Source: a bacterium (GTDB lineage: Bacteria > Babelota > Babeliae > Babelales > RVW-14). From it: DNA of 64,000 nucleotides. This document shows positions 29,257-55,097 of the stretch, piece by piece. The translations under genes and the position numbers were made by a program. The DNA lies in the NCBI GenBank assembly GCA_016699045.1, contig CP064957.1, forward strand, positions 409,784 through 473,783. Reading direction: 5' to 3'. Every line of letters starts with the position of its first letter. The first letter of the stretch is position 1. The notes under the pieces were generated by a model. That model saw only the letters and a list, made by a program, of their open reading frames with translations. It was not told the DNA's origin and did no database searches.

Positions 29257-29276
29257 GATTAAATTCTCCTATTTTT

Positions 29277-30074: not shown

Positions 30075-30274
30075 CGATCTCCTTATTATTTCGATTCCTC
30101 AGCTTTCGCTGTAATCTCTTCCACTTCCTTTACTACTTTCTTACTTATTTACTTGTCGCTCATAATGAGATGCTTTGGTAACAGCGTAAGATTCTGTTCC
30201 TGCACCAAAGTTTAAAAAATAGCCTGCACTATGTTTCCACTCATCTCATATCTCCTCTTTTCATCATAATTCAT

Positions 30275-37258: not shown

Positions 37259-39145
37259 TTATGTCGCTATTGTCTTGTTAATTATTGTTTGCAATTGCAA
37301 ATACGCTTGTTTCGCTTCTTCAAGCGACGCGCCATCTTCAAGCGTACTCACATCACCAACCGGCGATCCTTCAACAACCGCCTTAAGCAAGCGACGCATA
37401 ATTTTTCCTGAACGTGTTTTAGGCAATTTATCAACACAATAAATGCCACACAACATCACAAAAGCACCAATGTACTCACGCACTACCTGGGTAATCTGTT
37501 GTTTGACATGATCGTGAGATTCACTACCACTATTTTTCAAAATAACAAACAACACCACCGCCTCACCGCGCAATTCATCGTGCACGCCAATCGCTGCCGC
37601 TTCTGCAATCATCAGCAACGTTACCACAGCACTTTCTATTTCTGCCGTACCAATGCGATGCCCTGCAATGTTAACTACTTCGTCAGCTCGACCAAGTAAC
37701 CAAAAATAACCGTCTTCATCAACGCGCGCATAATCGCCGGTATAATACATGCCCTTAAAGCGACTCCAATAAACTTCTTTAAATCGCTCTGGATCATTGT
37801 ACACACCAATCGTCATACCGGGCCATGGTTTTTTGATAACTAAATATCCCTTGGTTCCTGCCGGCACTGGATTGCCATGCGTATCAACAACTTCTGCAGC
37901 TATGGTTGGCAGTGGCACGGTTGCAGAACCAGGTTTGAGCGCTACCAAATCAAGGCCCGCGGTTGGCGCAATCATAAAGCCACCAGTTTCTGTTTGCCAC
38001 CAGGTATCAATCACTGGACAACGCCCGGCACCAATGCGTTCATGATACCAGCGCCACACGTCAGGATTGATTGGCTCCCCAACGGTTCCCAATATTTTTA
38101 AACTTGAAAGATCGCACGCTGCCGGCCATTGATCACCATACTTTATGCACATGCGAATAGCAGTTGGAGACGTGTAAAAAATTGAAACACGATATTTTTC
38201 AACCAAACGCCACCATGCCGATGGATCTGGATAGTCCAACGTGCCTTCATGAATGACGGAGGTAAGTCCAAGCAATAATGGTGCATAGACAACATACGAA
38301 TGACCAGTAATCCAGCCAATGTCTGCCGTACACCAATAAACCGACGTATGATCTGGATCAAACGCCCACTCCATCGTCGTTCGTGCGTACGTCAAGTAGC
38401 CGCCAGTTGAATGCATTAAGCCTTTTGGTTTTCCCGTAGTTCCTGACGTGTACAATATAAACAACGGATGATTTGCTTCAACCGCAACCGGTTCAACAAA
38501 AACATTCTCTTCAAAAAAATCATCCGCAACAACATCACGACCTGGTTGTAAAAAAACTTCTTGTTCAAAGCGTTTTATCACCAACACTTTTTCAATTGAA
38601 GAACATTCGCTCACGGCATGATCGACAATTTTTTTAAGTTCAATTCTTTTCCCACGACGAACACCCGCATCAGCGGTGATAACAAATTTTGCTTGCGTAT
38701 CATCAATTCGATCTTTGAGCGCATGACTACTAAAACCTGAAAACACCACCGAATGCGTAGCACCAAGGCGTGCGATTGCCAAAATGGCTGCAATCGCTTG
38801 CGGAATCATTGGCAGGTAGACCATCACAATATCATTTTTGCTCACGCCAATTTTTTGCAACGCATGCGCATACTGATTAACTTGTTTATACAACTCGGCA
38901 TAGGTCCAAGTAACAGCATTTCCTTGCTCGTCTTCACAATGGTAGGCAACTTTATTACCAAGACCATTTTTGATATGCACGTCAACGCAAGCGTACGACG
39001 CGTTGAGCGTGCCGCCAGAAAACCAATGCGCGTACGGTTCTTGCCAATCAAGAACCCTCTTCCAACGCTTAAACCATGCTAACTTTTCAGCTTGTTGTTC
39101 CCAAAAATTTTCTCTATTTAATCGATCATCACGAGCGGGCATCAT
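37259..39145 (-). CDS. acs: Acetyl-CoA synthetase (acetate--CoA ligase)
   Basis: YTSGTTGKPKG AMP-binding motif, WWQTETGG, YYTGDYARVDEDGYFWLLGRADEVVNIAGHRIGTAEIE, KLPKTRSGKIMRR. The start is set at ATGATG 39145 behind the RBS aaggatga (the ORF track extends to 39244). Confidence 0.9.
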   Translation of the reverse strand: MMPARDDRLNRENFWEQQAEKLAWFKRWKRVLDWQEPYAHWFSGGTLNASYACVDVHIKNGLGNKVAYHCEDEQGNAVTWTYAELYKQVNQYAHALQKIGVSKNDIVMVYLPMIPQAIAAILAIARLGATHSVVFSGFSSHALKDRIDDTQAKFVITADAGVRRGKRIELKKIVDHAVSECSSIEKVLVIKRFEQEVFLQPGRDVVADDFFEENVFVEPVAVEANHPLFILYTSGTTGKPKGLMHSTGGYLTYARTTMEWAFDPDHTSVYWCTADIGWITGHSYVVYAPLLLGLTSVIHEGTLDYPDPSAWWRLVEKYRVSIFYTSPTAIRMCIKYGDQWPAACDLSSLKILGTVGEPINPDVWRWYHERIGAGRCPVIDTWWQTETGGFMIAPTAGLDLVALKPGSATVPLPTIAAEVVDTHGNPVPAGTKGYLVIKKPWPGMTIGVYNDPERFKEVYWSRFKGMYYTGDYARVDEDGYFWLLGRADEVVNIAGHRIGTAEIESAVVTLLMIAEAAAIGVHDELRGEAVVLFVILKNSGSESHDHVKQQITQVVREYIGAFVMLCGIYCVDKLPKTRSGKIMRRLLKAVVEGSPVGDVSTLEDGASLEEAKQAYLQLQTIINKTIAT

Positions 39146-39331
39146 ACGATCATCCTTTTTTATTAGCCACACATTACACTCACAAAAAGCGTTTATTACT
39201 AACTGCTTGCTGCACAATGTAACGGAAAAAATATGCTTGAGCAAACTACAATCTCACAACTCACAAATAACGAGAGGGGCACTCTTTTTCGAATGCCCCT
39301 CAGACAAAAATTCTCTTTAAATGTTAAAAAA

Positions 39332-42300
39332 TTATTCTTTAACCTGGCAGTTATCGCAGGTTTCATGCAAGTTTGCAACGCGAACATTCTTACACGTATC
39401 CTCATCTACCAACACTTTTGCTCGTCCGTTTTCATCCTGCATTTGCGCAGCCCTTGCATAAAGCTCAGGAGATACCGTAAACGATTTGTCTGAATCTAGA
39501 CACGGCATCACGTTTGTCCACAAAGACGAACGATGTGGCAATTGCCTCCAACGACGAGTACCATCTTCACACTTAAATACATCTACATTTGCTTCAGCAT
39601 GCGGCGCAAGAGCCCACGCCGTTTTATCTTTATTTGCAAAAAGTTCATTGCCATCATCAAGAGAGCAACAGTCATGATCCGCTAGCTCACAGGAAGCTGG
39701 GGCTGTATTTAGTAGCCACATGTGTTGTGCAGGATCCCACGTTGCAAAACGTGCACCATCATTCCACGTCACCAATTGAGATTTTGCAACGTCAGTTGGG
39801 CTGAAAAGCTCAAATTGACTGGCTTGCTCATTCAACTTAAACAACCGATTATCCGGGCCCAAACAATATTCTTGTCCCGCAAAGTCTTTACAATCAGGAA
39901 CATTGGCCCATCGTCCGGTTTCGTCTTCACTTTCTCCGCGATGCCAATATTTCACTGCATTATTTTCAGCGTCACTGTCTTCATTAATGCAAAACAATGC
40001 AGAGTCATTGTTGCAATCATCAGACATTAAAACCCATTCAGTCAAATCATCATTAAGTATAAAGACGCGACCATCTGGCCCCATACACATGCCATCGCGT
40101 TCATTACCAGTACACATTGGCGCATCATACCAACCATAATCATCACAATCTGAATGCCAATAATAAACATCGCCATTTAGATCACAATATGCCAAATTAC
40201 CTGCGTTATCAAAAAAGCAATCAGAACCGCTTAACGAAACCCACGCATTAGCATTATCATTTGGTATAAAGATTTTACCATCTTTACCAACAAATTTACC
40301 CGCACAGACTTCTGATGATTCCTCATCCCAATACGGAACATCTTGCCACGAAAGTACACCATCCTCAAAATGGCGGTAAAAAATACGCCCATTTTGCAGC
40401 ATACAATCTGCCTCTTCAAGCGTACATGGCATTCCCTCAGTCCAAACACCAGAATCTTTTTTTGAATAAAACGTTGTTGCATAATCGGTTCTGGTATCAA
40501 CTTCACAGATACCAGCACTCAAATCACACGGTGGATTTAACGAACAATGACCATTTTCATCACAAAATACATTTATCTTTTTGCCAGCTTTATTAACAAA
40601 ACGATACAATACTTGTTGATCATTCCAATCTTCAGGCGTATTTTGCCACTGCTGATTTGCCGCACTCCAAAATTCCAAAACACCGCCTAGATCGCATACT
40701 TCTCCCGATACACCAACACCACATGGAGAAACCTCACTATACGTTCCATCAGAACGCAAATAAAGCTTGAGATCACCAACACGACAAAGCACCGAATCTT
40801 TTTCACATGAAGGCTCTAAGCTCCATTGATTGCCATGGCGATACAGAATCGTTTTTTCATCACTTTGCCTACAATATGGCACAGATGATTTATCGCCACA
40901 TAAATCGGCCGGCTTCCATCCATCATTGCCAAACCAAAAATACGCACCATCTCCAAATCTAATCAAGCGAACATCTAGTGCAACATCAAGATTTAAAAGC
41001 CACAGCGTCTTGCCATCAAGCGTACCAGCATACAGTCTATTGCCATCATCAAGTGTACAATAGCCCTTTGTTTGACCAGTAAGCCTCATTAACAATCCAC
41101 CACTATTCGCTTTTTTACAAGCCTGCGGTGCATCATTAATAAGCCACTTCTTTTGCTCAGGATCCCAGGTTGCGTAGTTTCTACCATCGCCAAAATCAAC
41201 TAAACGAGATTTGATTACATCTTCAGGTTCTTTTAACTCAACAAAGTATCCGGCAGCATTGCGTTGAAATAACGTACCATCAACGCCCACACAATAATTA
41301 AGGTCGGCAAAATCATCACAAGAAGGGATATCACTCCACCAGCAGCCATTACCCATATTCTTCCAATATTTAACCTTGCCATCTTTGGTACAGTAGCTTA
41401 GGGTCGTTCCTTGAATCATGCACTTACTTGCATCTTCAAGACGAACCCAGCCCGTGCAATCATCATTTGGTATAAAAATACGTCCATCAGGTCCTTTAAA
41501 AACACCTTGGTGCGATACAGACCAATCCCACGCTGGCGTATCTTCCCAAGAACTGGTTCCATTCTTTATGTGAGGATAGTACACGGCATCATTTTCAAGA
41601 ACGCAGTATTTGTCCGAGTACGCATCGCACGGCATACCCTCAGTCCAACTCGAAGCATCTTTTTTTCTGAAAAATTCAGTCCCATCAACAATGCAAATTC
41701 CTTCACGCGGTTGGCAAGGAAATTTGACGCTGCAACTACCATCTTTGTTGCAAAAAACTAAAACGCCACTTTGATCAGATTTAATAAAGCGATAGAGCTT
41801 TTTGTTTGCAGCCCAATTAACCGGTTTATTCTGCCATTTTTTTTCTTGGTAATTCCAAAATTCTATGATGTTTTCATCAAAAATACAGACAGCCTCTGAG
41901 TGCTCGCCATCAGCACACGGCGACGTTTCTTTATACGATCCATCTTCATGAAGGTAAAATTTTAAATCATCAACAGTACAAATTTTAACACCATTGCCAC
42001 ATGGCGGGGTCAGCAGCATATCATTGCCATGTCGGTACAATCGCAAGCCATCTGGCAAATCACAATATAGCTTATCTCTATCACAAAAAGGTTTTTCAAC
42101 TCCTTCGCGAATCACCGGCAAGTTTTGAAAACACAAGCGACCGTCTGGTAAAAAATGAAATCCTTTTTTTCCAACGGAACAATGCCATGCGCCCGGAGTT
42201 ACATCGCCAACAAAAGCTAAGTTTTTCCCATTACAAAGTATTATTGGCAACAAACTTGACCCATCATTTTTCGACGCATTAATACAAGAAAAATCAATCT

Positions 42301-43237
42301 TATCATTAATCGAATATTCTTGTTTTTTGCAACGAATTTGCCATGCATTTATACACGTAGGTCCTGCAAACAGGTGGGTATCGCATTGATTTGGATTCCA
42401 TAGCGCATCTTTTACATCATGAGCTTTTTCTGAAATCGCCACACGATTTTCATAAATGCCAGCGCCTACCAACAATGCCAACAAACCATACCCACAAGCT
42501 TTGATGACCCATGATTGACTTTGAGCAGACTCATCGTCATACAAAATATGCGGACAATCAAGAATTTGATCGCCATTAATAAACGTCTCCGTAGGAAATG
42601 ATTTTGTTTCCATCGATTCTTTTTCATCGTCATATGAAATCAGAATCGTTACAAGTGGTGATTTTTTGACAAGAGCACCACCTGACCTATCATTCGTCAA
42701 TCGAACTTGTATCGAACGTGGATCAAAAAAATCGACAATCAAATTAAATAAGCGCTCAAGAAATTCTCGTTTATTATAATTTTTTACACTCATATGACAA
42801 TATGTACCACCACCATCATGCCTGTCAGCACGCTCACACACGGCAGCATTAATTAACATCAATTGCTGCTGAATTTGATCTTGAATACCAGGTAGCTCTG
42901 GCATTCTTGGCGTCAGCAACTTATCAAGCTCATCGGCAGAAAAACGAAACGCTTCACTGTATGCAAGATCAGTATAAAGATGTGCCATAACAGCAGGCAT
43001 CATCTCTGCTTGCAGCCGACTCAGTGATCGTTTTTGTAAATCTGTTAATTGATTTCCCCCGTCAAACACTACTTTTTTAAAAATGCTTTTCCATTTGGCA
43101 TCAAGATCAAACTGACACCGTTGTTTCAGAAAATTATTAAATTGATGATCGTACACAACATATTCATGCTTTACTGCATTCAATGACATTGAACATAAAA
43201 AAAGAACACTGAACAACAGCGCACGTGGCATACCCAT
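39332..43237 (-). CDS. Giant secreted Cys/Trp/Asp-rich protein with two tandem ~360-420-aa repeats, no recognisable domain
   Basis: 1301-aa uninterrupted ORF. Signal peptide MGMPRALLFSVLFLCSMSLNAV. One hydrophobic stretch at aa ~247-262. Repeat 1 is aa ~390-750 (nt 40988..42070) and repeat 2 is aa ~787-1210 (nt 39608..40879). The two repeats are alignable along their length. Confidence 0.7.
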   Translation of the reverse strand: MGMPRALLFSVLFLCSMSLNAVKHEYVVYDHQFNNFLKQRCQFDLDAKWKSIFKKVVFDGGNQLTDLQKRSLSRLQAEMMPAVMAHLYTDLAYSEAFRFSADELDKLLTPRMPELPGIQDQIQQQLMLINAAVCERADRHDGGGTYCHMSVKNYNKREFLERLFNLIVDFFDPRSIQVRLTNDRSGGALVKKSPLVTILISYDDEKESMETKSFPTETFINGDQILDCPHILYDDESAQSQSWVIKACGYGLLALLVGAGIYENRVAISEKAHDVKDALWNPNQCDTHLFAGPTCINAWQIRCKKQEYSINDKIDFSCINASKNDGSSLLPIILCNGKNLAFVGDVTPGAWHCSVGKKGFHFLPDGRLCFQNLPVIREGVEKPFCDRDKLYCDLPDGLRLYRHGNDMLLTPPCGNGVKICTVDDLKFYLHEDGSYKETSPCADGEHSEAVCIFDENIIEFWNYQEKKWQNKPVNWAANKKLYRFIKSDQSGVLVFCNKDGSCSVKFPCQPREGICIVDGTEFFRKKDASSWTEGMPCDAYSDKYCVLENDAVYYPHIKNGTSSWEDTPAWDWSVSHQGVFKGPDGRIFIPNDDCTGWVRLEDASKCMIQGTTLSYCTKDGKVKYWKNMGNGCWWSDIPSCDDFADLNYCVGVDGTLFQRNAAGYFVELKEPEDVIKSRLVDFGDGRNYATWDPEQKKWLINDAPQACKKANSGGLLMRLTGQTKGYCTLDDGNRLYAGTLDGKTLWLLNLDVALDVRLIRFGDGAYFWFGNDGWKPADLCGDKSSVPYCRQSDEKTILYRHGNQWSLEPSCEKDSVLCRVGDLKLYLRSDGTYSEVSPCGVGVSGEVCDLGGVLEFWSAANQQWQNTPEDWNDQQVLYRFVNKAGKKINVFCDENGHCSLNPPCDLSAGICEVDTRTDYATTFYSKKDSGVWTEGMPCTLEEADCMLQNGRIFYRHFEDGVLSWQDVPYWDEESSEVCAGKFVGKDGKIFIPNDNANAWVSLSGSDCFFDNAGNLAYCDLNGDVYYWHSDCDDYGWYDAPMCTGNERDGMCMGPDGRVFILNDDLTEWVLMSDDCNNDSALFCINEDSDAENNAVKYWHRGESEDETGRWANVPDCKDFAGQEYCLGPDNRLFKLNEQASQFELFSPTDVAKSQLVTWNDGARFATWDPAQHMWLLNTAPASCELADHDCCSLDDGNELFANKDKTAWALAPHAEANVDVFKCEDGTRRWRQLPHRSSLWTNVMPCLDSDKSFTVSPELYARAAQMQDENGRAKVLVDEDTCKNVRVANLHETCDNCQVKE

Positions 43238-43419
43238 AACTACTCTCCTCGTTGGATAAAAACCGAAAAATGTGAATAAAAAACATGCGCATAATGTAGC
43301 AAAACAATAATGGCCTGCAAATAAAAACTATCAACATTTTTTTTCAAATTGTGTACATCACGCATTATTTTTTGCAATATTTTTTGTTTTGATGCTAAAA
43401 AATGCTTTGTTATTGCCTG

Positions 43420-44065
43420 TTGTAAGCATTGTATGCAAGATGATCAACCAACATCTGCCGATACTCTGCAAGCTCAGAAACAGAAGCTCCCACCGTTTTT
43501 GCGCTTTCTTCTAAACGACGTATCATCAATTTTTCTTTAAACAATGGATCTTTTTCAAAAGCTTCAGCTTCTTGTTCAGTCATAGCCCCGCCTTGACGCT
43601 TTAATGTTTCCTGACTTGCGGGCGAAATCTGCTGTAAATAATCGGGTTGCCGAGAAACAAGATACCCGCTTGCACATGAGCTCCGACAAGTGCTGCAACA
43701 AGATCTGAAAATCCATGTTGTTTCAAAAAATCAGCGCCAATATCTTCATGATGCGCAACGCCATAGCCATCCATTTGCTCGCTATCTTTTGCAGCACACA
43801 AGTGGCCAATGTCGTGAAGCAAGGCAGCAATAACAATTTGGTCATCGCAGCCGGCCAACCTCGCTTGATACGCGCATTGAATGGCGTGTTCATACTGCGT
43901 AATTGCTTCGCCGATATAATCATAATCTTTACCTAACTCAATAATGCTCATGACTTTATCAACAACAGACTCTACCGATAGCAACTCATTTGGCATTGCT
44001 CGCAAAGATACAGAAAACACACAGAACACTAATAAACTCATAATTTTTGAAAATAAACGATTCAT
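43420..44065 (-). pseudogene. HD-domain protein of the PhnZ-like (HD phosphohydrolase/oxygenase) family, frame-shifted
   Basis: ORF 43601..44065 has QYEHAIQCAYQARLAGCDDQIVIAALLHDIGH and HHEDIGADFL...GAHVQA, then loses frame. The adjacent frame continues as GYLVSRQPDYLQQISPASQETLKRQGGAMTEQEAEAFEKDPLF...RRLEESAKTVG to a stop at 43420. The shift maps to the C/G run at about 43665..43668. Confidence 0.55.
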
Positions 44066-44264
44066 GACAATAATCTCCTTTCATAACTTTTTTAGACAAC
44101 ATTAACCAGCCAAAGCCTAGCACGAAAAAATGAAAGTCTAAAAAATTCTACACTTTCCTAAAATCACGCTCATGATTGTTTTTCTCGACATCACGCAACC
44201 CATCGGCTATAAAAATAAACATAGTATTTTTGAATGGTCTACGCATCACAACCGGAGAATTTTA

Positions 44265-44936
44265 ATGAAGAAAATAAGCTTATTGTTGTGCGCACTCTCG
44301 CTCATACTTTCGTCAGCACACAGCGTTACCACGCGATCGCAAGCAAGAAAAATAAGAGCCGTTTTTTTAAACTATGGCATTAAGTTATGCCAAGAAAATG
44401 AAACAAAAGAAGTCATAAACTTACTTGAAACAAATACGCCAACACCAAGCGAGCTCAGCACATTTATGGCCGCATGCACTCAGCAAGGAAACGTACAGTG
44501 CTTGAGCGTCCTTCTCGCTCAACCTGAAGTATCGCATGCCCTTAAAATTGATGGAGAACCATTGCTCAACGCACTTTATTGGTGGAATCATAATAAAAAT
44601 AACTGTGCATGCGTTAAACTTTTATTGCAATCCGGTGCAAACGCCAACCCTGCCACTGCATACAAAAATACCGCTCTTCATCTTGCCAGCAAAAGAGGTT
44701 GCCTTAAGTGCATTGAAAGACTCATCAAATCTGGCGCTGATATATTTGCAGAAAATTTTGAAAAAGAAACTCCCATAGAAATTTTTTACAACAATTACAA
44801 AGAATTTTTTAATGAAGGCACGATCGACCCGATTAATTTATTTATTAGTATGGTACCTAAATCTCACGATGAAGACACGTCAGAAGATGAAGACACCTCG
44901 GAATTTGTTAACATAGTCACCGAATCTCACTCTTAA
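44265..44936 (+). CDS. Secreted ankyrin-repeat protein with acidic C-terminal tail
   Basis: RBS ggaga plus ATG at 44265. Signal peptide MKKISLLLCALSLILSSAHS. ANK repeats (TALHLASKRGCLKCIERLIKSGADI). Tail HDEDTSEDEDTSEF. Confidence 0.85.
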   Translation: MKKISLLLCALSLILSSAHSVTTRSQARKIRAVFLNYGIKLCQENETKEVINLLETNTPTPSELSTFMAACTQQGNVQCLSVLLAQPEVSHALKIDGEPLLNALYWWNHNKNNCACVKLLLQSGANANPATAYKNTALHLASKRGCLKCIERLIKSGADIFAENFEKETPIEIFYNNYKEFFNEGTIDPINLFISMVPKSHDEDTSEDEDTSEFVNIVTESHS

Positions 44937-44949
44937 TAATTCAGACACC

Positions 44950-45615
44950 ATGATAAAACCAACCCACCAAGCCCTTTTATTATTGTTCATATTGACACTG
45001 ACCGTGCCGGCCAACCCGCGCACGGTCATCATGTTTGATCCAGCCGGGGACTCGCATGAGCTGGGCCGCAAACTTGCGCAAGGTTATGAGCGCGGCGCAA
45101 CGCTCACGCTGGCCGAAAAATTGCACCACGAGCTCTCGCAAGAACCAGGACTTTATCCGCTATTAAGCCGCCAACCAGGCGAGCAATGCCTCCCGCTACA
45201 GGCAGCATCTTTTGCCAACCGGCTTCAGACAAACCTGTTTGTGCGCTTGCATTGTTACCACGAGCTCACGGCAAAGCCGCGCATGTACATTTACTACAAG
45301 CTTCATAACCCTCTCACCGACCTTGCCCCCCGCCCGACCGTAAACGATCGTACGTTTACCCCCCTTTCCCAAGCCCATCTACCTAACCTGCGCCTCTCGA
45401 TCAAGCGAGCTGAAAGCATAAAAGAGACACTATCAAGCACCGACTACCAACAACTTTTCGATTGTTATGGCCCCTCTGGTCGACCGCTTAAGGCATTAAC
45501 CGGCATCCAGCCAAGCGCTCTGGTTATTGAAATTGGCCTGAGTGGATCAACCAAATTAGAAAGTCTAGTTCAACCCCTCAAAAATGCCATACTCAACGCC
45601 CTGCTCGTTGTATAA
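44950..45615 (+). CDS. Divergent Amidase_3 (N-acetylmuramoyl-L-alanine amidase)-like protein
   Basis: The layout matches AmiC/CwlD by eye: VIMFDPAGDSHELG (vs DPGHGG), YERGATLTLAEKL, NLFVRLHCYH (vs lfvSiHaD), PSALVIEIGL (vs psvLvEtgF). The first Zn-ligand His is displaced. Confidence 0.4.
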   Translation: MIKPTHQALLLLFILTLTVPANPRTVIMFDPAGDSHELGRKLAQGYERGATLTLAEKLHHELSQEPGLYPLLSRQPGEQCLPLQAASFANRLQTNLFVRLHCYHELTAKPRMYIYYKLHNPLTDLAPRPTVNDRTFTPLSQAHLPNLRLSIKRAESIKETLSSTDYQQLFDCYGPSGRPLKALTGIQPSALVIEIGLSGSTKLESLVQPLKNAILNALLVV

Positions 45616-45722
45616 AATAAATACACCAAAGCATACGATTTCTCTGGCCATTTTGGACTCCTCATGTTATGATTTTCATAACATATTATCTGTTTTATTT
45701 GAGAACAAAAAAGAGTTCCATT

Positions 45723-46229
45723 ATGATCTTTTTAGATTCACTCGTTGTTTTTTTCGAACAACTCCTTTACCCCCATTTTTCATCATTCACAACGCCTGAA
45801 GCCCTCATCAGCCTGGGGTGGTTTGTTCTTGGCATCTTTGTGCTCATTATTGAAATCAACATGCCGGGGCTTTTTTATTGCATCGCTTTGGCTTGTGGCT
45901 GTTTTACTGCGAGCGTGTTAGCACTGCTTGACTACAGCCTTTTTTCCCAGTGCCTTGTAGCGCTGGGCATTACAACACTCGCTTTTGCCAGCCTGCGCTC
46001 CTACTTTGGCGCACCAGCACAACCAACATTGCCCACCAACAGCGAAGCATTAATCAATAAACATGGAATTGTTGTAAAAACCATTGAGACCCATACCGCA
46101 GGCCGTGTAAAAATTAACGGTGAAGAATGGCCAGCATTAAGCGCCAACCACACGATCATTTTACAAAAAGGAACCTCAGTTCGCATTATTGGCATCAAAG
46201 GCAATAAAGTTATTGTCAAAACAGATTAA
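45723..46229 (+). CDS. NfeD-family membrane protein
   Basis: Hydrophobic N-terminal helices plus the C-terminal OB-fold segment GRVKINGEEWPALSANHTIILQKGTSVRIIGIKGNKVIV. Located immediately upstream of the SPFH gene, the classic operon arrangement. Confidence 0.75.
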   Translation: MIFLDSLVVFFEQLLYPHFSSFTTPEALISLGWFVLGIFVLIIEINMPGLFYCIALACGCFTASVLALLDYSLFSQCLVALGITTLAFASLRSYFGAPAQPTLPTNSEALINKHGIVVKTIETHTAGRVKINGEEWPALSANHTIILQKGTSVRIIGIKGNKVIVKTD

Positions 46230-46250
46230 TTAGACATAAAGGAACCCACT

Positions 46251-47237
46251 ATGATTTTTCTCATTTTTTTCGGCATTCTCTTTTTGTTCTTGGCTTTTTT
46301 GCTGATCAAAGCAACGTACGTTGTCAAACAAGCTGAAGTTGTAATCATCGAACGCTTTGGTAGTTTTCAACGTGTTTTAAAGCCAGGCCTCAATTTTGTT
46401 ATGCCATTTGCAGACAAACCCCGCCAAGTATTGTGGACATTTATTCAAGAAGAAGCACGCAGCGGAAAAATGTATCGATTCTCTCGCTATATTGAACGTA
46501 TTGATTTGCGCGAAAGCGTTTACGATTTTCCAAAACAAAACGTTATTACCAAAGACAACGTTACCATGGAAATTAACGCCCTGCTTTATTTCCAAATTAC
46601 CGATCCAATAGCTGCAACGTACGAAATAGACAACTTGCCACAAGGTATTGAAAAACTCACCCAGACAACCTTACGTAACATTATAGGCTCATTGGATCTT
46701 GATGAATCGCTCACTTCACGCGATATGATCAACGAAAAACTTACGCTCATTCTTGATGAAGCAACCGATAAATGGGGCGTTAAAGTTAATCGCGTTGAGC
46801 TCCAAGAAGTCAACCCACCACGCGATATTAGAGATGCGATGGAAAAACAAATGCGAGCAGAACGTGATCGCCGTGCCCACATTTTAGAAGCTGAAGGTTT
46901 TAAAACAGCTGCGGTTCTGGAAGCTGAAGGTAAAAAGAGTGCGGCCATCTTAGAAGCTGAAGGCGTGCAAATGTCTCAAGTCATGCGCGCAAAAGGTGAG
47001 TCTGATGCTCGTCGCTTGCTGGCGCAAGGTGAAGCAGATGCTATAAAATTGGTGCGAGATGCAATTCCAAACCAAGACCCACTGCCATACATGACCGCCA
47101 TCAATTACATCAAGGTATTACCAGAAATGATGAAAGATAAAAATGGCAAACTCATTGTAATTCCGTATGAAGCAAGTGCTGTTATGGGTTCATTAAGTGG
47201 CATTAAAACACTTTTTAAGGACCTTGATAAATCTTAA
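46251..47237 (+). CDS. SPFH/band-7 (stomatin/prohibitin-like) protein
   Basis: N-terminal anchor, then VVKQAEVVIIERFGSFQRVLKPGLNFVMPF...DFPKQNVITKDNVTMEINALLYFQITDP...RAERDRRAHILEAEG. Confidence 0.9.
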   Translation: MIFLIFFGILFLFLAFLLIKATYVVKQAEVVIIERFGSFQRVLKPGLNFVMPFADKPRQVLWTFIQEEARSGKMYRFSRYIERIDLRESVYDFPKQNVITKDNVTMEINALLYFQITDPIAATYEIDNLPQGIEKLTQTTLRNIIGSLDLDESLTSRDMINEKLTLILDEATDKWGVKVNRVELQEVNPPRDIRDAMEKQMRAERDRRAHILEAEGFKTAAVLEAEGKKSAAILEAEGVQMSQVMRAKGESDARRLLAQGEADAIKLVRDAIPNQDPLPYMTAINYIKVLPEMMKDKNGKLIVIPYEASAVMGSLSGIKTLFKDLDKS

Positions 47238-47262
47238 TTAATAAAAAAAGGAGCTTACAAAG

Positions 47263-47559
47263 ATGGTTAACCGCATTAAAATTCCTGTTATGTTTTTAGG
47301 CGGCTTACTGTTTTTTTGGTGGGCATTTTTATTATTTGCACGTAACAACACGGAAGATGCTCACCTTTATAGTAAAAACGCTTACTGCCAAAATACCAGT
47401 AAAATTTATGCTGATTTGGGCGAACTTGCGGAAAAAAGGCAAGACTTCCAGCAAGCAATTAGACACTATACAACAGCGCTGAATTTTCAGTCAGATCATG
47501 ACATTACTAAAAAACTTAATGCATGTTACAAGTTTCTGAATACAACTCATGCTACTTAA
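47263..47559 (+). CDS. Small membrane-anchored protein with one TPR-like motif
   Basis: 98 aa. Anchor IPVMFLGGLLFFWWAFLLFA. LGELAEKRQDFQQAIRHYTTALNF is TPR-like. Confidence 0.4.
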   Translation: MVNRIKIPVMFLGGLLFFWWAFLLFARNNTEDAHLYSKNAYCQNTSKIYADLGELAEKRQDFQQAIRHYTTALNFQSDHDITKKLNACYKFLNTTHAT

Positions 47560-47590
47560 AGAATAAACACGTTTTCTTATATTTATCGTA

Positions 47591-47623
47591 AAAAGGCACG
47601 GAACAAAATACCGTGCCTTTTTT
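47591..47623 (+). terminator. Rho-independent terminator
   Basis: Stem ggcacgg (47595..47601) / ccgtgcc (47611..47617) with a 9-nt loop, followed by TTTTTT. Confidence 0.55.
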
Positions 47624-47751
47624 GATTATAACCATAGAATCTAGACTATTTTTTATTCTAAAAAACATTATTTGCTTTTTTTTTAGTAACCATGCTACTG
47701 TACCTAAACAAGTAATTTTTTAAAATAATCTTTCATAATGCGAAGGAAAAA

Positions 47752-48423
47752 ATGCTTAAAAAAATATTCGTAGCATTGGGAATCTTCGTAAATATTTATG
47801 CTCCTTCCAATTACGGAGCAGCACCTCTAACGGCACGTCCCAAGCCCACCCACGAAGAATTAATCAAAAAAATGGTTTTTCTTACCGCGTCAGAAATCAA
47901 AATTCCCTACCTGTTATTTCAAGAAATACACGAAAAAATAGTCTACCTTTGTGAAATGTTTTATCGGGCAAAAACATATCACAAGCAAGAAGAAGCAGCT
48001 TGTTTGTTAATGTTATTAGAAGCTTTTCATACAAACGCACCAAAGACAGCCTTTTCTGAAAATGTCATCATCGCGGCTACGCGTTATGGCCTTACCAAAT
48101 CTTGCAAGCAATCACTCTTCTTCATTGGCGATGATAATACCATGTCGGACATGATTTATCACAGCATTCAACTGATACTTTACCAACAACAATCAGGCTA
48201 TTTTTGGTATAACATGATCTCAGATCTTGAGTATTGTAAAGCTGTGCAAATCTCAGATATCGTCAATCAATACAATCAACCTAAAAAAGAATCACAAAAG
48301 AAAAAAAATATTCGAATCAAAAAAAATGCAAAAAAAAGAATTGTCCTAACTAAAAAAGCAAAAAACAAATTCTGCCACAGGTCTTCTGAAAAGCACATAA
48401 GATTATGGAAAAAAAAACAATAG
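47752..48423 (+). CDS. Hypothetical secreted protein (family B, member 1) with Lys-rich tail
   Basis: Signal peptide MLKKIFVALGIFVNIYAPSNYGAA. Core IPYLLFQEIHEKIVYLCEMF...YGLTKSCKQSLFFIGDDNTMSDMIYHSIQLILYQ...FWYNMISDLEYCK. Tail KKESQKKKNIRIKKNAKKRIVLTKKAKNK. Confidence 0.55.
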   Translation: MLKKIFVALGIFVNIYAPSNYGAAPLTARPKPTHEELIKKMVFLTASEIKIPYLLFQEIHEKIVYLCEMFYRAKTYHKQEEAACLLMLLEAFHTNAPKTAFSENVIIAATRYGLTKSCKQSLFFIGDDNTMSDMIYHSIQLILYQQQSGYFWYNMISDLEYCKAVQISDIVNQYNQPKKESQKKKNIRIKKNAKKRIVLTKKAKNKFCHRSSEKHIRLWKKKQ

Positions 48424-48962
48424 CAGCTTTAAGCCTCATAAATATTTTTTATACAATAAGCGGATACGGAACAGCACGCGAACTTTTTCTGTACAGATCT
48501 AAAAGCGAATTATCTGCCGCTCAACAAAGCGTCATTATCATTGTTGCAACAAATACTCAAATTCCTTTTTTATATTTTAAAGAAATAGAAAAAAAAATTG
48601 ATACCATATTTTCGCATCTCGCTCATATAAAAAAATTACAACCACGCGAAGAAGAACGCTTTTTTAATTTTTTCAAACACCTTCTTGCCGCTCGACCAGG
48701 CCAAGCTCTTACTCACGACATTATGGTATTTGCTCAAGAATTTGGTTTAACACAATCAATGCATAATGCTTTTTTTCTTATCAAAAATAATGGCATGATA
48801 ACCGACATGGCACATCAATGCATTCAAGTAATTATTACCGAGCTCATTGAAGATTTTTATTGTCATTTCACTATTAATGAATTAGAAAAAATGAGAAAAA
48901 TAAAAATTAAAAAAAATAAAAACCAATATGGTAAAAAAGAATCAATTTTTCAACACAATTAA
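48405..48962 (+). CDS. Hypothetical secreted protein (family B, member 2) with Lys-rich tail
   Basis: Signal peptide MEKKTIAALSLINIFYTISGYG. Core IPFLYFKEIEKKIDTIFSHL...FGLTQSMHNAFFLIKNNGMITDMAHQCIQVIITE. Tail MRKIKIKKNKNQYGKKE. 19-nt overlap with member 1. Confidence 0.55.
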   Translation: MEKKTIAALSLINIFYTISGYGTARELFLYRSKSELSAAQQSVIIIVATNTQIPFLYFKEIEKKIDTIFSHLAHIKKLQPREEERFFNFFKHLLAARPGQALTHDIMVFAQEFGLTQSMHNAFFLIKNNGMITDMAHQCIQVIITELIEDFYCHFTINELEKMRKIKIKKNKNQYGKKESIFQHN

Positions 48963-48972
48963 CAACAAGACA

Positions 48973-49926
48973 ATGCAGATCGTGAAAAAAATAATATTCA
49001 TGGGATTAATGACAACACTCTCATGCCGCATAAAAATTCATGGTGCAGCCAATTTACCATTGCAATTTATTACACTTGATACAGAAGATCCTTCGAGCAA
49101 AATAGTCAAAATCGTCTCATCAAAAACAAAAGTTCCTTACCTTTTTTTTGAAGAAATACATAAAAAAATAGTTGAGTTATGCACATTGCTCGGCGAAACA
49201 AAAAAATTAAGACTTGAAACTGAAACAACAATTTTATGTTATCTGTGCAATTTTTTACTTACTTATCCAAAAGAATATCAAAAGCAAGATACCAAGATAG
49301 GGCTCCTTCTTGACAAAATAACCAAGTTTGTAGCCGACAAACTCCCCCCATCACCAGACATACCTGATATTGAAAAAATCTTAATAGATTACACTTTATA
49401 CTTTTTTGAAGATGATGAAAACATAAGATTGGCAGAAAATGTAGCCGAATGCATACAAATAATTTTATATAACGCCGGCAATAATTTTTATTGGTATAAT
49501 CTAATTGAAACATTAGAATACAACAAAGAAATCGTTATTTATACGCCACAATCACCCTTCTCTTCGCTCAAACAAGGCAGCAGCCGTATAAGATCGACTT
49601 TTTCAAACAGCCCGGTCAGCAGCAGCGGCAATGAATCAGACGATAAAATCAAAAGGCATTCAAGTATGCCAACTACGCCAACGATAGAACATGGATTATC
49701 CCTCAAACAACACCATCTCGACAGAATAGACAGAAGCCCAGACTGCGATGGCGACTTCACGCACAACCCTCCTAAACATGGATACTCGTCGCCACTCACA
49801 CGCATAAGCCCCGTAAAAAAAGTGGCTCCTTTAGAAATTCATCAGCCAAAAAGCAGCCAAAGCAATTCAACTAAAGTTACTATCATGGAATGCTTAATGG
49901 AAAAGAAATATCCCCAAGAACTCTAG
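48973..49926 (+). CDS. Hypothetical secreted protein (family B, member 3) with Ser/Pro-rich tail
   Basis: ATG at 48973. Signal peptide MQIVKKIIFMGLMTTLSCRIKIHGAA. Core VPYLFFEEIHKKIVELCTLL...RLAENVAECIQIILYNAGNNFYWYNLIETLEYNK, followed by an S/P/T-rich region. Confidence 0.55.
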   Translation: MQIVKKIIFMGLMTTLSCRIKIHGAANLPLQFITLDTEDPSSKIVKIVSSKTKVPYLFFEEIHKKIVELCTLLGETKKLRLETETTILCYLCNFLLTYPKEYQKQDTKIGLLLDKITKFVADKLPPSPDIPDIEKILIDYTLYFFEDDENIRLAENVAECIQIILYNAGNNFYWYNLIETLEYNKEIVIYTPQSPFSSLKQGSSRIRSTFSNSPVSSSGNESDDKIKRHSSMPTTPTIEHGLSLKQHHLDRIDRSPDCDGDFTHNPPKHGYSSPLTRISPVKKVAPLEIHQPKSSQSNSTKVTIMECLMEKKYPQEL

Positions 49927-50390
49927 ACGAAGAAAAACCTAAACGTCCCTCTCCACCACTCAAAAAATCAAGCGTTATCAATCCCCGCGGCAGCCTAGAT
50001 GAAGTTGTGCACAAAAAAGACACAAGCTCGCCTCCTCAAACAAATCCTTTGATAAAACGACTCTCTCTGCGCGAAGATGGACGCCCTTCTTCAGGAAGTC
50101 CTCACCGTCCAGGCACGCCATCGCAAAAATCTAGCGAAGAATACCCACCTCATGCACCAAGAAAAATGCTGGGCAATTTACGCATCAGCAAAGCACTTCA
50201 AAGAAACAAGACCGAGCTTCCATCGCAATTCAGCAGAAGCAAAGCCTCATCGCCCGCTGCTAACTCACCACACACGCCATCGCCACACAGCCAAAGCTCA
50301 ACATCATCGCTGCTCACATCAGCATCTTACTCAAAGCCTTTTGAAAGCGACAAAGGAGAAGAGGATGAGCAAAGCCGACAATTTAGTTAA
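49890..50390 (+). CDS. Ser/Pro-rich disordered ORF, probably the frame-shifted continuation of 48973..49926
   Basis: 166 aa with no signal peptide. Its composition (SPPLKKSS, SPHRPGTPSQKSS, SPHTPSPHSQSS) continues that of the upstream tail. The two frames overlap at 49873..49926. Confidence 0.4.
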   Translation: MLNGKEISPRTLDEEKPKRPSPPLKKSSVINPRGSLDEVVHKKDTSSPPQTNPLIKRLSLREDGRPSSGSPHRPGTPSQKSSEEYPPHAPRKMLGNLRISKALQRNKTELPSQFSRSKASSPAANSPHTPSPHSQSSTSSLLTSASYSKPFESDKGEEDEQSRQFS

Positions 50391-53360: not shown

Positions 53361-53795
53361 ATGCAAACAAAATTTTTAGGATCATTGTTCGTTGCCTTGG
53401 CTTTTGCTACCACCGCAACACTAGCAGCCAATCCGCTACATGAAGCAGCTAAAAATGGCGACAAGGCGAGTATAAGAAGATTTTTGGCAGACACAAATTG
53501 CAATATTGAAGATCGAGATGATTTCGGCAGGACGCCACTTATTTTGGCTGCTGAGTATGGCCATTTGAATTGTATCAAAATACTTACATCTTGTGGTGCT
53601 GATATTAAAAAAAATGGCACAACAGCTCTGCATGCAGCTGCTAAAAATGGCCATACTAGCTGCGTAGATTATTTGAAAGCTAAAATTACAGCTGATTGTG
53701 CAGCAAAAAATCCATATGGCAACACACCACAAGAGCTAGATGGAGAGTATCTTTTTGGTTATGAAAGCTATCTTTTTGACGATGAAGCATTTTAA
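53361..53795 (+). CDS. Secreted ankyrin-repeat protein
   Basis: Signal peptide MQTKFLGSLFVALAFATTATLAA. ANK repeats NPLHEAAKNGDKASIRRFLAD, TPLILAAEYGHLNCIKILTSCGADI, TALHAAAKNGHTSCVDYL. Confidence 0.9.
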   Translation: MQTKFLGSLFVALAFATTATLAANPLHEAAKNGDKASIRRFLADTNCNIEDRDDFGRTPLILAAEYGHLNCIKILTSCGADIKKNGTTALHAAAKNGHTSCVDYLKAKITADCAAKNPYGNTPQELDGEYLFGYESYLFDDEAF

Positions 53796-53855: not shown

Positions 53856-55097
53856 TTATTCGTTAACCACACTTAAAAGTTCTTCAAGACTGATAATGCC
53901 AGCAGCAACTTTAAGCAGGCCATCATGCAAAAGCGAAGGCATGTTATCACGCAAGCCTTGATGCCGAATAAGATCGGCAGAAGCTTTTTTGAGAACCAGG
54001 TCGCGAATGCTGTCATTTAATAAAATTAACTCAAAAATACCCGATCGACCTTTGTGCCCAACATTAAAACATTGTTTGCAACCAACAGCTTTAAAGCGGG
54101 TATTAACGTCGATATTATACGCTTCCATAATTTTTTTCTCATCATCAGAAAGCGGCACTTCTTCTTTGCAGGCTCTGCATAAACTGCGCACTAAGCGCTG
54201 AGAAAGAACGCCGGTCAAGGTCGCATTAATTAAAAATGGCTCAACCTGCATATCCAACAACCGCGTTACCGCACCGGCCGCATCGTTGGTGTGCAACGTG
54301 CTCAGTACCAAATGGCCCGTTAACGCAGACTGCACCGCAATTTGCACGGTTTGTTTGTCGCGAATTTCGCCGATCATGATAACATCCGGATCTTGGCGCA
54401 ACATCGAGCGCAAGCCATTTTCAAAATCAAAACCGGTCTTACTATTAACTTGGCTTTGCGTAATGCCAGGCAAATCGTATTCAACAGGATCTTCCATGGT
54501 AACAATATTACGCTCAGTGCTATTTAAACGCGACAGCAGGGCGTAGAGCGTTGTTGTCTTGCCCGAGCCAGTTGGGCCCGTCACTAAAAAAAAACCTTGT
54601 GGATGGTCAACTATGGCCGCCAGCGCTTTAAAAATATCAGGACGCATGCCCAAAGATTCAAGGGCTAGAATATTTGTCGTGCGATCAAGAATTCGCACAA
54701 CAATTTTTTCTCCATAAATTGATGGAAAGGTGGCAACGCGCAAATCAATTGGTTGAGCATCTGGCTGGTCGAGTATAACTTTAAATTTGCCATCCTGCGG
54801 CACACGCTTTTCTGCAATATCAAGAGCAGCCAAGATTTTAACGCGTGAAAGAACTTGCGGCATAAGCTCGTGATCAAACGTTTCGTGATCGTGCAAAAAA
54901 CCATCAACACGCAAACGAACACGCAAAACACTATTGTCCGGCTGCAAATGAACATCAGAAGCACCCATGGCAATAGCCTTACACAACAAGGTATCAACAC
55001 TATCAACAACGTGATCGCTCACGATGCCTTGCTTGAGCTTTTGTTCGGCATCAAGCAAAACGTAAGCTCCGTGTTCTTCTCGTTCATTCCCAACCAT
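53856..55097 (-). CDS. GspE/PilB-family secretion ATPase (core only, no N1 domain)
   Basis: Walker A GPTGSGKTTTLYA, Asp box MEDPVEY, Walker B DPDVIMIGEIRD, His box LVLSTLHTND, tetracysteine CRACK...CKQC. 413 aa. Confidence 0.85.
   Translation of the reverse strand: MVGNEREEHGAYVLLDAEQKLKQGIVSDHVVDSVDTLLCKAIAMGASDVHLQPDNSVLRVRLRVDGFLHDHETFDHELMPQVLSRVKILAALDIAEKRVPQDGKFKVILDQPDAQPIDLRVATFPSIYGEKIVVRILDRTTNILALESLGMRPDIFKALAAIVDHPQGFFLVTGPTGSGKTTTLYALLSRLNSTERNIVTMEDPVEYDLPGITQSQVNSKTGFDFENGLRSMLRQDPDVIMIGEIRDKQTVQIAVQSALTGHLVLSTLHTNDAAGAVTRLLDMQVEPFLINATLTGVLSQRLVRSLCRACKEEVPLSDDEKKIMEAYNIDVNTRFKAVGCKQCFNVGHKGRSGIFELILLNDSIRDLVLKKASADLIRHQGLRDNMPSLLHDGLLKVAAGIISLEELLSVVNE

Follow-up and report, generated by a model that had tools for sequence, protein, structure and literature searches.

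A tandem trio of paralogous proteins with signal-peptide-like N-termini, an unmatched predicted core fold and divergent tails in an uncultured Dependentiae bacterium

Small proteins that carry a Sec signal and no recognisable domain occur in the amoeba-infecting bacterium Legionella pneumophila, whose lineage-restricted type II secretion system (T2SS) substrates of the NttA-NttG class are secreted folded, include some novel folds and are needed in particular protist hosts; their secretion has been shown experimentally. Nucleomodulins such as Legionella RomA and Anaplasma AnkA are instead delivered by type III or type IV systems and contain recognisable enzymatic or ankyrin domains. Dependentiae are obligate parasites of protists (PMC6561590). 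In Chromulinavorax destructans, export proceeds by Sec, and signal peptides are present in 44% of CDS, among which ORFans are overrepresented (PMC6561590). T2SS components and two gspD copies belong to the core of TM6 genomes (PMC4776705).

The DNA analysed here is a window of 64,000 nucleotides, whose positions are used throughout. It comes from an uncultured, intracellular member of the Dependentiae (TM6/Babeliales), and its TypA is nearest to those of TM6/Dependentiae MAGs (62-73% identity). Between a TPR gene and uvrC the window carries three tandem genes, hereafter genes 1, 2 and 3, which code for proteins m1, m2 and m3. The features of this locus are as follows.

47595-47623, plus strand: intrinsic-terminator-like hairpin 3' of the TPR gene (GGCACGG, 9 nt loop, CCGTGCC, then TTTTTT)
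47624-47751, plus strand: presumed promoter and 5' UTR of gene 1, with an AAGGA Shine-Dalgarno-like motif ending 5 nt before the ATG
47752-50390, plus strand: three-gene unit m1-m2-m3, between the TPR gene and uvrC
47752-48423, plus strand: gene 1, 223 aa (QQR49601.1, IPF37_02030); signal-peptide-like residues 1-24, alpha/beta core ~25-172, Lys/Arg-rich tail 173-223
48405-48962, plus strand: gene 2, 185 aa (QQR49602.1, IPF37_02035); signal-peptide-like N-terminus, core, short Lys-rich tail
48982-49926, plus strand: gene 3, N-terminal part, GTG start, 314 aa (QQR49603.1, IPF37_02040); signal-peptide-like segment, core with a ~20 aa insertion, first stretch of a Ser/Pro/Thr-rich tail
49901-49908, plus strand: frameshift site, with A-runs at 49901-49904 and 49906-49908, from DNA and joined-frame protein alignments
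49905-50390, plus strand, +2 frame: gene 3, C-terminal part (ORF 49890-50390), from alignment to the ortholog P0004
50387-52000, minus strand: uvrC, convergent with gene 3, the two stops overlapping by 4 nt

A preliminary description of this DNA had listed the three ORFs as tandem paralogs, and they are true paralogs, with similarity well beyond chance: BLASTP aligned m1 with m2 at E = 7e-17 (27% identity over 183 aa), m1 with m3 at E = 4e-17 (30% over 153 aa) and m2 with m3 at E = 3e-9 (23% identity). When an HMM of the core was run against all six-frame ORFs of the window, it recovered three copies only, the next match having an E-value of 0.26. All three proteins share one layout, in which a signal-peptide-like N-terminus is followed by a core of ~140-160 aa and a low-complexity tail. 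Four core motifs had been proposed; all three genes have motif 1, which reads (I/V)P(Y/F)L.F.EI..KI, as well as F(Y/W)..(I)..LE, but (Y/F)GLT(K/Q)S and, from the third motif, the (S/T)DM part are confined to genes 1 and 2. In gene 3 the corresponding sequences are DKITKF and AENVAECIQII, with the ~20 aa insertion between them. The end of gene 1 and the start of gene 2 share 19 nt (48405-48423), an overlap also present at the corresponding locus of a sister species (L001).

Gene 3 most likely starts at the GTG at position 48982, which is an ATG in the ortholog and is also the start annotated by NCBI; an alternative in-frame ATG at 48928 is conserved as well. With a start at 48982, gene 3 does not overlap gene 2. 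Its end had been placed at 49926, which alignment to P0004 overturned: this ortholog (495 aa) spans both gene 3 and the next ORF, running ~170 residues past the N-terminal part, and the gene 3 protein is ~160 aa longer than described. The C-terminal part shares 72% amino acid identity with the P0004 C-terminus, at a dN/dS of 0.37 (155 codons). ORF 49890-50390 is the C-terminal continuation of gene 3, with the true end at 50390. At the frameshift site, DNA alignment places a 17-nt stretch here against 15 nt in the ortholog, one extra A within 49901-49908 regains a single reading frame, and the stop at 49924-49926 results from the frameshift. The break is a one-base loss in an A-run, as expected either of slippage that happened very recently or of a mistake in the assembly. 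Programmed frameshifting was rejected, because the 0 frame offers no slippery heptamer (X-XXY-YYZ) and the ortholog is encoded without a break in frame. The gene model IPF37_02040 is corrected here for this frameshift or assembly error.

In the sister species, too, the TPR gene and uvrC enclose this trio, with its gene order unchanged. DNA identity across the locus is 81.6%, and the orthologs of genes 1 and 2 are 91% and 79% identical, respectively. Comparison of orthologs between the two species gave dN/dS values of 0.17, 0.31, 0.31 and 0.37, and omega for the cores only was 0.04, 0.27 and 0.27 for m1, m2 and m3, respectively; the cores are under purifying selection and the genes are real. 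In the tails, omega was 0.38 for m3, and only the short tail of m1 reached ~1.3, a value based on 14.5 versus 2.5 substitutions. The diversification that had been suggested applies to the tails at most. Paralog dN/dS, a check proposed along with that suggestion, is not meaningful because synonymous sites are saturated at 23-30% amino acid identity, which is why orthologs were compared. The purifying selection acting on the cores, most of all on that of m1, gives no sign of an arms race. A neighbour-joining tree grouped the proteins into three orthologous pairs with the sister species (100% bootstrap), its deep nodes, at only 55-62%, being of no use for dating the duplications. Since all three were already paired as orthologs in the sister species and the copies are 23-30% identical, the triplication is old, contrary to the recent event implied by the phrase "local gene amplification".

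These comparisons also bear on the possibility that the ORFs are decaying remnants or pseudogenes of a reduced genome, which we consider very improbable. Gene 3 is frameshifted in this assembly, a nearby HD-domain gene (43601-44065) has lost 4 nt and is truncated when compared with a second assembly of the species, and GC3 of the trio (0.215-0.35, with 0.215 in gene 2) lies below that of the neighbours (0.37-0.44). However, the trio of the sister species is intact, syntenic and under purifying selection, with an omega of 0.3-0.4 in both halves of m3; the single-base loss sits in an A-run; and the core is predicted to fold with confidence (see below). For m1 and m2, decay is largely refuted. 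Foreign origin was also considered from composition and set aside, GC3 being somewhat low but not decisive.

The N-termini follow a single pattern: behind MxKK comes a hydrophobic stretch of 10-14 residues, which leads to a conserved G-[AT]-A located at residues 20-24. In m1, m2 and m3, respectively, the n-regions are MLKK, MEKK and MKK, the h-regions IFVALGIFVN, IAALSLINIF and IIFMGLMTTL, and the c-regions G-A-A, G-T-A and G-A-A; the best 10-mer Kyte-Doolittle values are 2.1-2.5. All nine family sequences (9/9) have this n/h/c architecture despite sharing less than 30% identity. By a heuristic pattern check, the basic n-region, the h-region of 7-15 residues and the small residues at -3/-1 expected for Sec and signal peptidase I are all present, so that the signal peptides of the preliminary description were confirmed as signal-peptide-like N-termini, an assignment that is a heuristic reading of the n/h/c pattern. 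The signal peptidase II lipobox L-[AS]-[GA]-C was absent from all three: m1 and m2 contain no Cys in their first 60 residues, and m3 has T-L-S-C at residues 12-15 (I-F-S-C in its ortholog), with a Cys that is not conserved in m1, m2, P0008 or P0009. The signature of type IV pilins and T2SS pseudopilins was likewise absent, since the hydrophobic stretch directly follows MxKK and there is no G-F-T-L-x-E.

The hydrophobic segment could alternatively be an uncleaved signal anchor that tethers a periplasmic core and tail to the inner membrane. In m1 a Pro directly follows G-A-A (+1), which disfavours cleavage at that bond and makes the exact bond uncertain, and the c-region of m3 carries Arg and Lys (RIKIHGAA); both features weaken the signal peptidase I site. 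Yet hydrophobic stretches of ~10-14 residues are below a typical membrane span, and 9/9 members, for all their low identity, retain small-x-small residues (G-[AT]-A or S-A-A) at a constant distance. An anchor is accordingly improbable in our view. A signal peptide is proof of inner-membrane crossing only, and the sequence is just as compatible with a role in the periplasm or envelope.

AlphaFold predicted residues 24-178 of m1 with a pLDDT of 89.1, all five models reaching 88-89, and a pTM of 0.82. This run used an alignment of seven sequences; a prediction from four sequences, in which one of five models folded (pLDDT 76 versus ~37), was not relied on. The predicted order of elements is beta-beta-alpha-alpha-alpha-loop-alpha-beta-beta-alpha-beta, with five beta strands. 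Foldseek searches of PDB and BFVD detected no similar fold (best E ~1, TM <0.3), and a profile search of PDB sequences returned no match. With an E-value limit of 1, the three proteins drew only noise from Pfam-A and NCBIfam (Mnt, 0.17), and searches with all seven family members gave a sub-threshold WH_CYT4 match in one member (E = 0.0031). The core, a compact alpha/beta domain of ~140 aa, has a confidently predicted fold without a match among solved structures, and the preliminary description's failure to recognise a known domain extends to all of these databases. Because the conserved core residues are almost all hydrophobic and include no conserved Cys/His/Ser/Asp set, the core is most likely a binding module and not an enzyme.

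One match raised the prospect that the core belongs, in divergent form, to a known family, for instance the saposin-like helical lipid-binding domains. P0007, a protein of 1231 aa with eight saposin-type repeats, was found at E = 4.2e-4 over seven short stretches (profile positions 57-90), an E-value that arises because repeated weak matches are summed. When the aligned saposin repeats of P0007 were compared with the family by hhalign, the probability was 1.6% over 22 columns; moreover, conserved cysteines are absent from the family but number six in each saposin repeat, and the core is predicted to mix alpha and beta elements rather than to form the four-helix bundle of saposins. The link via P0007 was therefore rejected, and membership of a known family is barely credible.

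The tails are variable, as had been described: those of m1 and m2 are polybasic (41% and 35% Lys+Arg, respectively) and that of m3 is Ser/Pro-rich (35% Ser+Thr+Pro). The tail of m3 is ~290 aa long, with conserved short blocks and an acidic end; in the C-terminal part of gene 3, Ser+Thr+Pro reaches 38% and there are nine [ST]P sites. The tails differ by paralog, and we propose that they are disordered and that each opens with a basic patch. A scan for nuclear localization signals (NLS) found K(K/R)x(K/R) once in the tail of m1 and once in that of m2, but no bipartite signal; matches to the former, low-information pattern are expected from composition in tails with 35-41% Lys+Arg. Phospho-motif readings, like the NLS-like ones, are based on patterns that are short and poor in information.

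Upstream of gene 1, the stem and T-run of the hairpin at 47595-47623 are also conserved in the sister species; a consensus terminator scan missed this hairpin because the loop limit of the scan was 8 nt. We propose from its sequence that it sets the TPR gene apart from the transcription unit of the family. The segment 47557-47766 is 93% identical between the two species, and nearly 100% over its last ~100 nt, versus 81.6% for the whole locus. A sigma-70 consensus scan found no site in 47624-47751, and neither its hits nor those of the terminator scan were enriched over shuffled sequence; Rfam assigned no family to the conserved upstream region, and its fold was not significant (z = -0.85). Further genes of the surroundings are the following.

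44172-44936: ankyrin protein (Pfam Ank) with a hydrophobic, signal-peptide-like N-terminus
53361-53795: ankyrin protein, from its translation, a paralog of other ankyrin ORFs, with a hydrophobic signal-peptide-like N-terminus
53856-55097: T2SS-type ATPase (T2SSE family), 4 kb away, 91% identical to an ortholog with PF00437

The family is lineage-restricted, very rare and previously undescribed. Libraries of 5.8 billion and 1.84 billion sequences contained ~7 distinct family proteins, with 5 matches among the 1.84 billion representative sequences, and the family was seen in ~5 assemblies. A query built from the full-length alignment was swamped by the low-complexity tails; a cores-only query found P0009, which is annotated as Candidatus Babeliales and has a syntenic locus. 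Pattern scans gave 600 matches in GTDB representative genomes, which evidently do not include the window's own genome, with 0 confirmed by tblastn, and two scans with different patterns revealed no relatives in JGI metagenome contigs. In the genome of P0009, a more distant member of the Babeliales, the flanking genes are 53-95% identical, the single family member is 27% identical and the slot holds a different set of genes; with flanks conserved and the family member at 27%, the TPR-uvrC slot is hypervariable. In Babeliales genome GCA_019749895.1 (L084), the same slot holds neighbouring ORFs of 143, 248 and 209 aa with signal-peptide-like N-termini and no Pfam domain. These have in common with the family a weak segment, LS..-helix-GL/GF...F.II(D)..G.I, for which the hhalign match was weak, at 20% probability (E 1e-3, 40 columns). 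Unlike the family, the proteins of 248 and 209 aa have acidic N-terminal regions, and no homologs of the L084 slot proteins were found in the window.

Both neighbourhood and distribution bear on the possible, if rather unlikely, explanation that the proteins stay in the cell as periplasmic or outer-envelope proteins whose basic tails bind LPS, peptidoglycan or anionic lipids, and whose partners might be the neighbouring NfeD, Band-7 and TPR membrane proteins. The NfeD-Band7-TPR-family gene order is kept in three genomes, the core of m1 is strongly constrained and the signal peptide alone shows translocation across the inner membrane only, all of which would suit such a role. However, a strong terminator lies between the TPR gene and the family, and long Ser/Pro-rich disordered tails such as that of m3 are unusual for periplasmic proteins. 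Divergence of the family well beyond its flanks between genera, with changing copy number and slot content, would also be unusual for envelope housekeeping, and the family is missing from nearly all other genomes, as judged from the negative GTDB scan and the 5 matches among 1.84 billion representatives.

The explanation we favour, with confidence evenly balanced between belief and doubt, is that m1, m2 and m3 are binding proteins that have modular tails, are exported by Sec, probably leave the cell by type II secretion and face the host. We infer a course in which one transcript, begun in the conserved region that follows the hairpin, would cover the three genes, Sec would export the proteins and the signal peptide would be removed. 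The folded core would then leave the cell by the T2SS, which is core to the phylum, or by outer-membrane vesicles, and would arrive in a host-facing compartment of the protist host, where it may act by binding rather than by catalysis. The tails may provide paralog-specific targeting or docking, the polybasic tails of m1 and m2 to anionic membranes, nucleic acids or the nucleus, and the tail of m3 as a eukaryote-like linear-motif or phosphorylation scaffold. As for the earlier label of "host-interaction factors", the Dependentiae context and the hypervariable slot speak for it, but secretion to the host is presumed.

A bolder claim, which is in our judgement quite unlikely, is that the core is a genuinely new fold defining Babeliales-specific effectors that use Sec and the T2SS, with tails retargeting them to host compartments. 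If so, the m1 and m2 tails would lead to the nucleus, nucleolus or anionic membranes, the m3 tail would mimic phospho-regulated linear motifs of the host, and the TPR-uvrC slot, weakly similar L084 genes included, would be a dedicated effector nursery of reduced genomes.

Dependentiae are widespread, almost uncultured protist parasites. Export signals mark close to half of their proteins, and the majority of the proteins so marked lack a known function. The trio is a small, well-bounded case, with three paralogs, a confident model, orthologs and a defined slot, that can be used to ask how such bacteria reach their hosts without type III or type IV secretion and whether disordered tails retarget a common domain. 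It establishes no new principle; functioning as proposed, it would be one more lineage-specific effector family.

Like the NttA-NttG class of L. pneumophila, the family consists of small proteins with a Sec-type signal and no known domain, its secretion being a presumption here; unlike that class, it forms a tandem trio with modular disordered tails, and sequence, PDB and Foldseek searches detected no sequence or fold similarity between the two. With nucleomodulins it shares, in m1 and m2, Lys/Arg-rich tails whose K(K/R)x(K/R) resembles a monopartite NLS, but it differs in its Sec signal, its unrecognised core and the absence of a bipartite NLS. It also resembles the "effector" repertoire of signal-peptide-bearing ORFans and ankyrin-repeat proteins of the Dependentiae themselves (Chromulinavorax destructans and Babela massiliensis; PMC6561590, PMC4776705), which belongs to the same phylum and likewise combines a Sec-type signal with no recognisable domain. 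As in that repertoire, the trio sits among ankyrin proteins with signal-peptide-like N-termini, and a Sec plus T2SS or vesicle route and host manipulation are presumed. The family is a further lineage-specific case within the familiar class of signal-peptide ORFans that is common in the phylum. It is apparently not described in those two reports, and is set apart from the repertoire by its occurrence in ~5 assemblies, its confident predicted fold and its location in one conserved hypervariable slot.

The three family B genes (m1, m2 and m3) are arranged head to tail between a TPR gene and uvrC. The preliminary description had placed all three ORFs, including the m1/m2 overlap, where the window sequence has them.

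Features of the family B locus
47595-47623, strong terminator-like hairpin 3' of the TPR gene, conserved in the sister-species contig L001
47752-48423, + strand, m1, 223 aa
48405-48962, + strand, m2, 185 aa, overlapping m1 by 19 nt
48928-49926, + strand, m3 as first placed, 332 aa

The products, deposited at NCBI as QQR49601-03 (IPF37_02030/35/40; 'MAG: bacterium', 1.45-Mb contig), align with each other in all combinations (BLASTP E 7e-17 and 27% identity for m1/m2, 4e-17 and 30% for m1/m3, 3e-9 and 23% for m2/m3), indicating homology far above chance level. Their alignment holds 25 invariant columns, in and near the motifs noticed by eye, and among the six-frame ORFs of the whole window a core HMM matched only m1, m2 and m3 (E ≤1e-55; next E 0.26), confirming the proposed tandem paralogs with a shared core. 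Two of the four motifs described as common to the family occur in all three genes, whereas (Y/F)GLT(K/Q)S and the (S/T)DM part are confined to m1 and m2; m3 has a different sequence at both positions, plus an insertion of ~20 aa. Each N-terminus runs from MxKK through 10-14 hydrophobic residues (best 10-mer Kyte-Doolittle 2.1-2.5) to G-[AT]-A at residues 20-24, a layout like that of Sec signal peptides and in keeping with those predicted for all three proteins. Composition likewise confirmed the contrasting tails, Lys-rich in m1 and m2 (41% and 35% Lys+Arg) and Ser/Pro/Thr-rich in m3 (35% Ser+Thr+Pro).

Apart from the three window proteins, a word-indexed search of 5.8 billion proteins gave a single match, P0004 (495 aa), the m3 ortholog of the sister species. 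P0004 aligns first with m3 and beyond it with the following ORF (49890-50390) in the +2 frame, which is 72% identical to the P0004 C-terminus (dN/dS 0.37). DNA alignment placed the frame break inside TTAATGGAAAAGAAATA, a stretch of 17 nt in the window compared to 15 nt in the ortholog, with A-runs at 49901-49904 and 49906-49908; addition of one A produces a single frame. Because P0004 is collinear across both ORFs and one A restores the frame, position 49926, previously taken as the end of m3, is a frameshift stop, and m3 extends to 50390, 4 nt within the convergent uvrC. Programmed frameshifting is unlikely, as the break lacks a slippery heptamer and the ortholog is in one frame. The missing base is either real or an assembly error; GCA_020049755.1, from the same species, is 99.5% identical over 37758-48711 and ends within m2, upstream of the break. 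The most likely start of m3 is GTG 48982, which is ATG in the ortholog and the NCBI start; it gives MKKIIF..., resembling MLKKIF and MEKKTI of the other two proteins. An in-frame ATG upstream, at 48928, is conserved too.

An HD-domain gene (43601-44065, minus strand) codes for 154 aa in the window compared to 219 aa in GCA_020049755.1, having been cut short by a 4-nt deletion at ~43667 (CCGCTTGGCTTGC to CC-C---GCTTGC). At least one other nearby gene is therefore broken in this assembly, and the two broken genes within 7 kb reflect either assembly indel errors or real gene decay in the strain. Of the 48 substitutions that separate the window from GCA_020049755.1, about 30 cluster at 40828-43071, inside a 1301-aa ORF (39332-43237, minus strand) with no Pfam domain, which is therefore a strain-variable giant ORFan.

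The sister-species contig L001 (identical to L002; sources ENA ERZ27258499 and Logan SRR33128029) shares 81.6% DNA identity with the window and carries the same trio in the same order, from the TPR gene through the m1, m2 and m3 orthologs (231, 179 and 495 aa) to uvrC. Since the m1/m2 overlap is also present in L001 and our scan found no + strand terminator-like site between the three genes, we infer that m1-m2-m3 form one operon. The 128 nt from the hairpin to the m1 ATG (47624-47751) are 93-100% identical between the two species; this non-coding region is thus more conserved than the coding DNA, suggesting a constrained promoter, leader or regulatory element. Searches there for a sigma-70 consensus, an Rfam family and a significant fold were negative. 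A neighbor-joining tree grouped every orthologous pair with 100% bootstrap, its deeper nodes lacking resolution, and the triplication is older than the split of the two species.

dN/dS between the window and L001 (Nei-Gojobori)
m1, whole: 0.17
m1 core: 0.04 (97% aa identity)
m1 Lys-rich tail: about 1.3 (14.5 non-synonymous vs 2.5 synonymous, plus indels)
m2, whole: 0.31
m2 core: 0.27
m3, N-terminal part: 0.31
m3 core: 0.27
m3 tail: 0.38
m3, C-terminal ORF: 0.37
TPR gene: 0.12
uvrC, C-terminal 93 codons: 0.06

The low core values show that the cores are conserved. Of the proposed diversifying tails, only that of m1 evolves freely, and its composition stays the same. The dS of m1 is unusually low (0.26 vs 0.70 for uvrC). 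Over a 53-nt stretch that encodes motif 1 (KIPYLLFQEIHEKIV; window 47890-47942 against L001 1855-1907, and the equivalent m1/m3 pair within L001), m1 and m3 are 81-83% identical in DNA, although the proteins are otherwise 30% identical; the cause is either strong constraint or gene conversion over a small tract.

The nearest relatives of the window TypA are TM6/Dependentiae/Babeliales MAGs (62-73% identity). When 1.84 billion cluster representatives were searched exhaustively with the HMM (E up to 1e-3), only five proteins matched: m3 itself, P0005 (182 aa), P0006 (an m1 fragment from another assembly), P0008 (236 aa) and a spurious prosaposin-like repeat protein. A relationship to saposins was rejected (hhalign probability 1.6%, no conserved cysteines, five-strand predicted fold). 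P0009 (235 aa, MBY0353619.1, Candidatus Babeliales bacterium) came from a further profile search restricted to the cores, and family patterns found no relatives in GTDB species representatives or JGI metagenome contigs. Given these few matches and negative scans, the family is tiny, with about seven distinct proteins in about five assemblies. P0008 lies near a contig end amid leucine-rich-repeat, ricin-like and other hypothetical proteins with hydrophobic N-termini.

P0009 lies in L084, a locus of the more distant GCA_019749895.1, whose gene order matches the window: acetyl-CoA synthetase, ankyrins, amidase-like, NfeD, Band-7 and TPR genes, then the slot holding P0009, then uvrC, M23 peptidase, T2SS-type ATPase, FUN14, HU and radical-SAM genes.

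Amino acid identity, L084 vs window
Band-7: 93%
T2SSE ATPase: 91%
UvrC: 82%
M23 peptidase: 82%
TPR: 53%
Family member P0009: 27%

Besides its one family member, the L084 slot (7389-10058) holds three genes (143, 248 and 209 aa) without counterpart in the window, all with signal-peptide-like N-termini, the latter two paralogous to each other (1e-12). These proteins share a segment, 'F/W-x-I-I-D-P-x-G', the one part with a weak, tentative resemblance to family B (hhalign probability 20%, E 1e-3, 40 columns). The P0005 contig repeats this arrangement; P0005 is apparently truncated by a frameshift relative to P0009. The ankyrin-repeat region, with one gene in the window (44172-44936) and five or six in tandem in L084 (518-4639), is a second hypervariable slot among surroundings that are otherwise conserved.

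Elsewhere in the window, three consecutive paralogous ORFs (27460-31549, minus strand; 598, 265 and 424 aa; BLASTP 1e-10 and 8e-9) are probably 'family A' of the preliminary description; the two proteins scanned, of 598 and 424 aa, have no Pfam domain. Two adjacent paralogous ORFs (20517-22141, + strand; 315 and 196 aa; BLASTP 5e-12) lie within the lowest-GC stretch (0.33). An HMG-CoA reductase gene (Pfam 2e-100) followed by two co-oriented ORFs (31764-35244, + strand) suggests a mevalonate-pathway cluster in this 1.45-Mb Dependentiae genome, and an acetyl-CoA synthetase gene lies at 37259-39244.

As anticipated, family B matched no known domain in Pfam, NCBIfam or PDB sequence searches. AlphaFold2 modelled the m1 core (residues 24-178, 7-sequence alignment) consistently (pLDDT 89.1, pTM 0.82; all five models at 88-89) as a beta-hairpin followed by three helices, a long loop and another helix, and then two short strands, one short helix and a last strand. 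In this model, motif 1 would reach from the last part of strand 2 into the beginning of the long helix, IQ.I would form helix 5, F(Y/W)WY...LE strand 4 plus the short helix, and the final I.I the last strand, with the m3 insertion predicted in the long loop. Across the wider family, the invariant residues comprise F, I, L, E and I; because these sequences hold no conserved Cys/His/Ser/Asp set, we read the core not as an enzyme but as a putative binding module.

The Dependentiae live as obligate parasites inside protist cells. On the reading with the best support, Sec would export all three proteins, and T2SS or vesicles would then release them to the host-facing side, where the conserved core may bind a target and the tails may confer paralog-specific localisation or docking. 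A T2SS-type ATPase is encoded 4 kb downstream, and two nearby ankyrin proteins have signal-peptide-like N-termini. The tails carry low-information matches: K(K/R)x(K/R) patterns in the basic tails of m1 and m2, and in that of m3 16 [ST]P sites, among them SPHR, together with several [KR][KR]x[ST] sites. The main rival, a purely periplasmic or envelope role, agrees with the signal peptide and with how tightly m1 is constrained, but accounts less well than release to the host-facing side for the hypervariable slot and for the family's extreme rarity. Family B is thus a real gene family, correctly noticed, whose 3' boundary is now corrected; the family is new, and its predicted core is possibly a new fold. 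In C. destructans, signal peptides occur in 44% of CDS, ORFans are over-represented in that set, and the export route is given as Sec (PMC6561590); T2SS components, among them two copies of gspD, belong to the core of the Dependentiae phylum (PMC4776705). Dependentiae genomes are already known to be dominated by the class to which family B belongs, the exported, lineage-specific ORFans of an intracellular bacterium.
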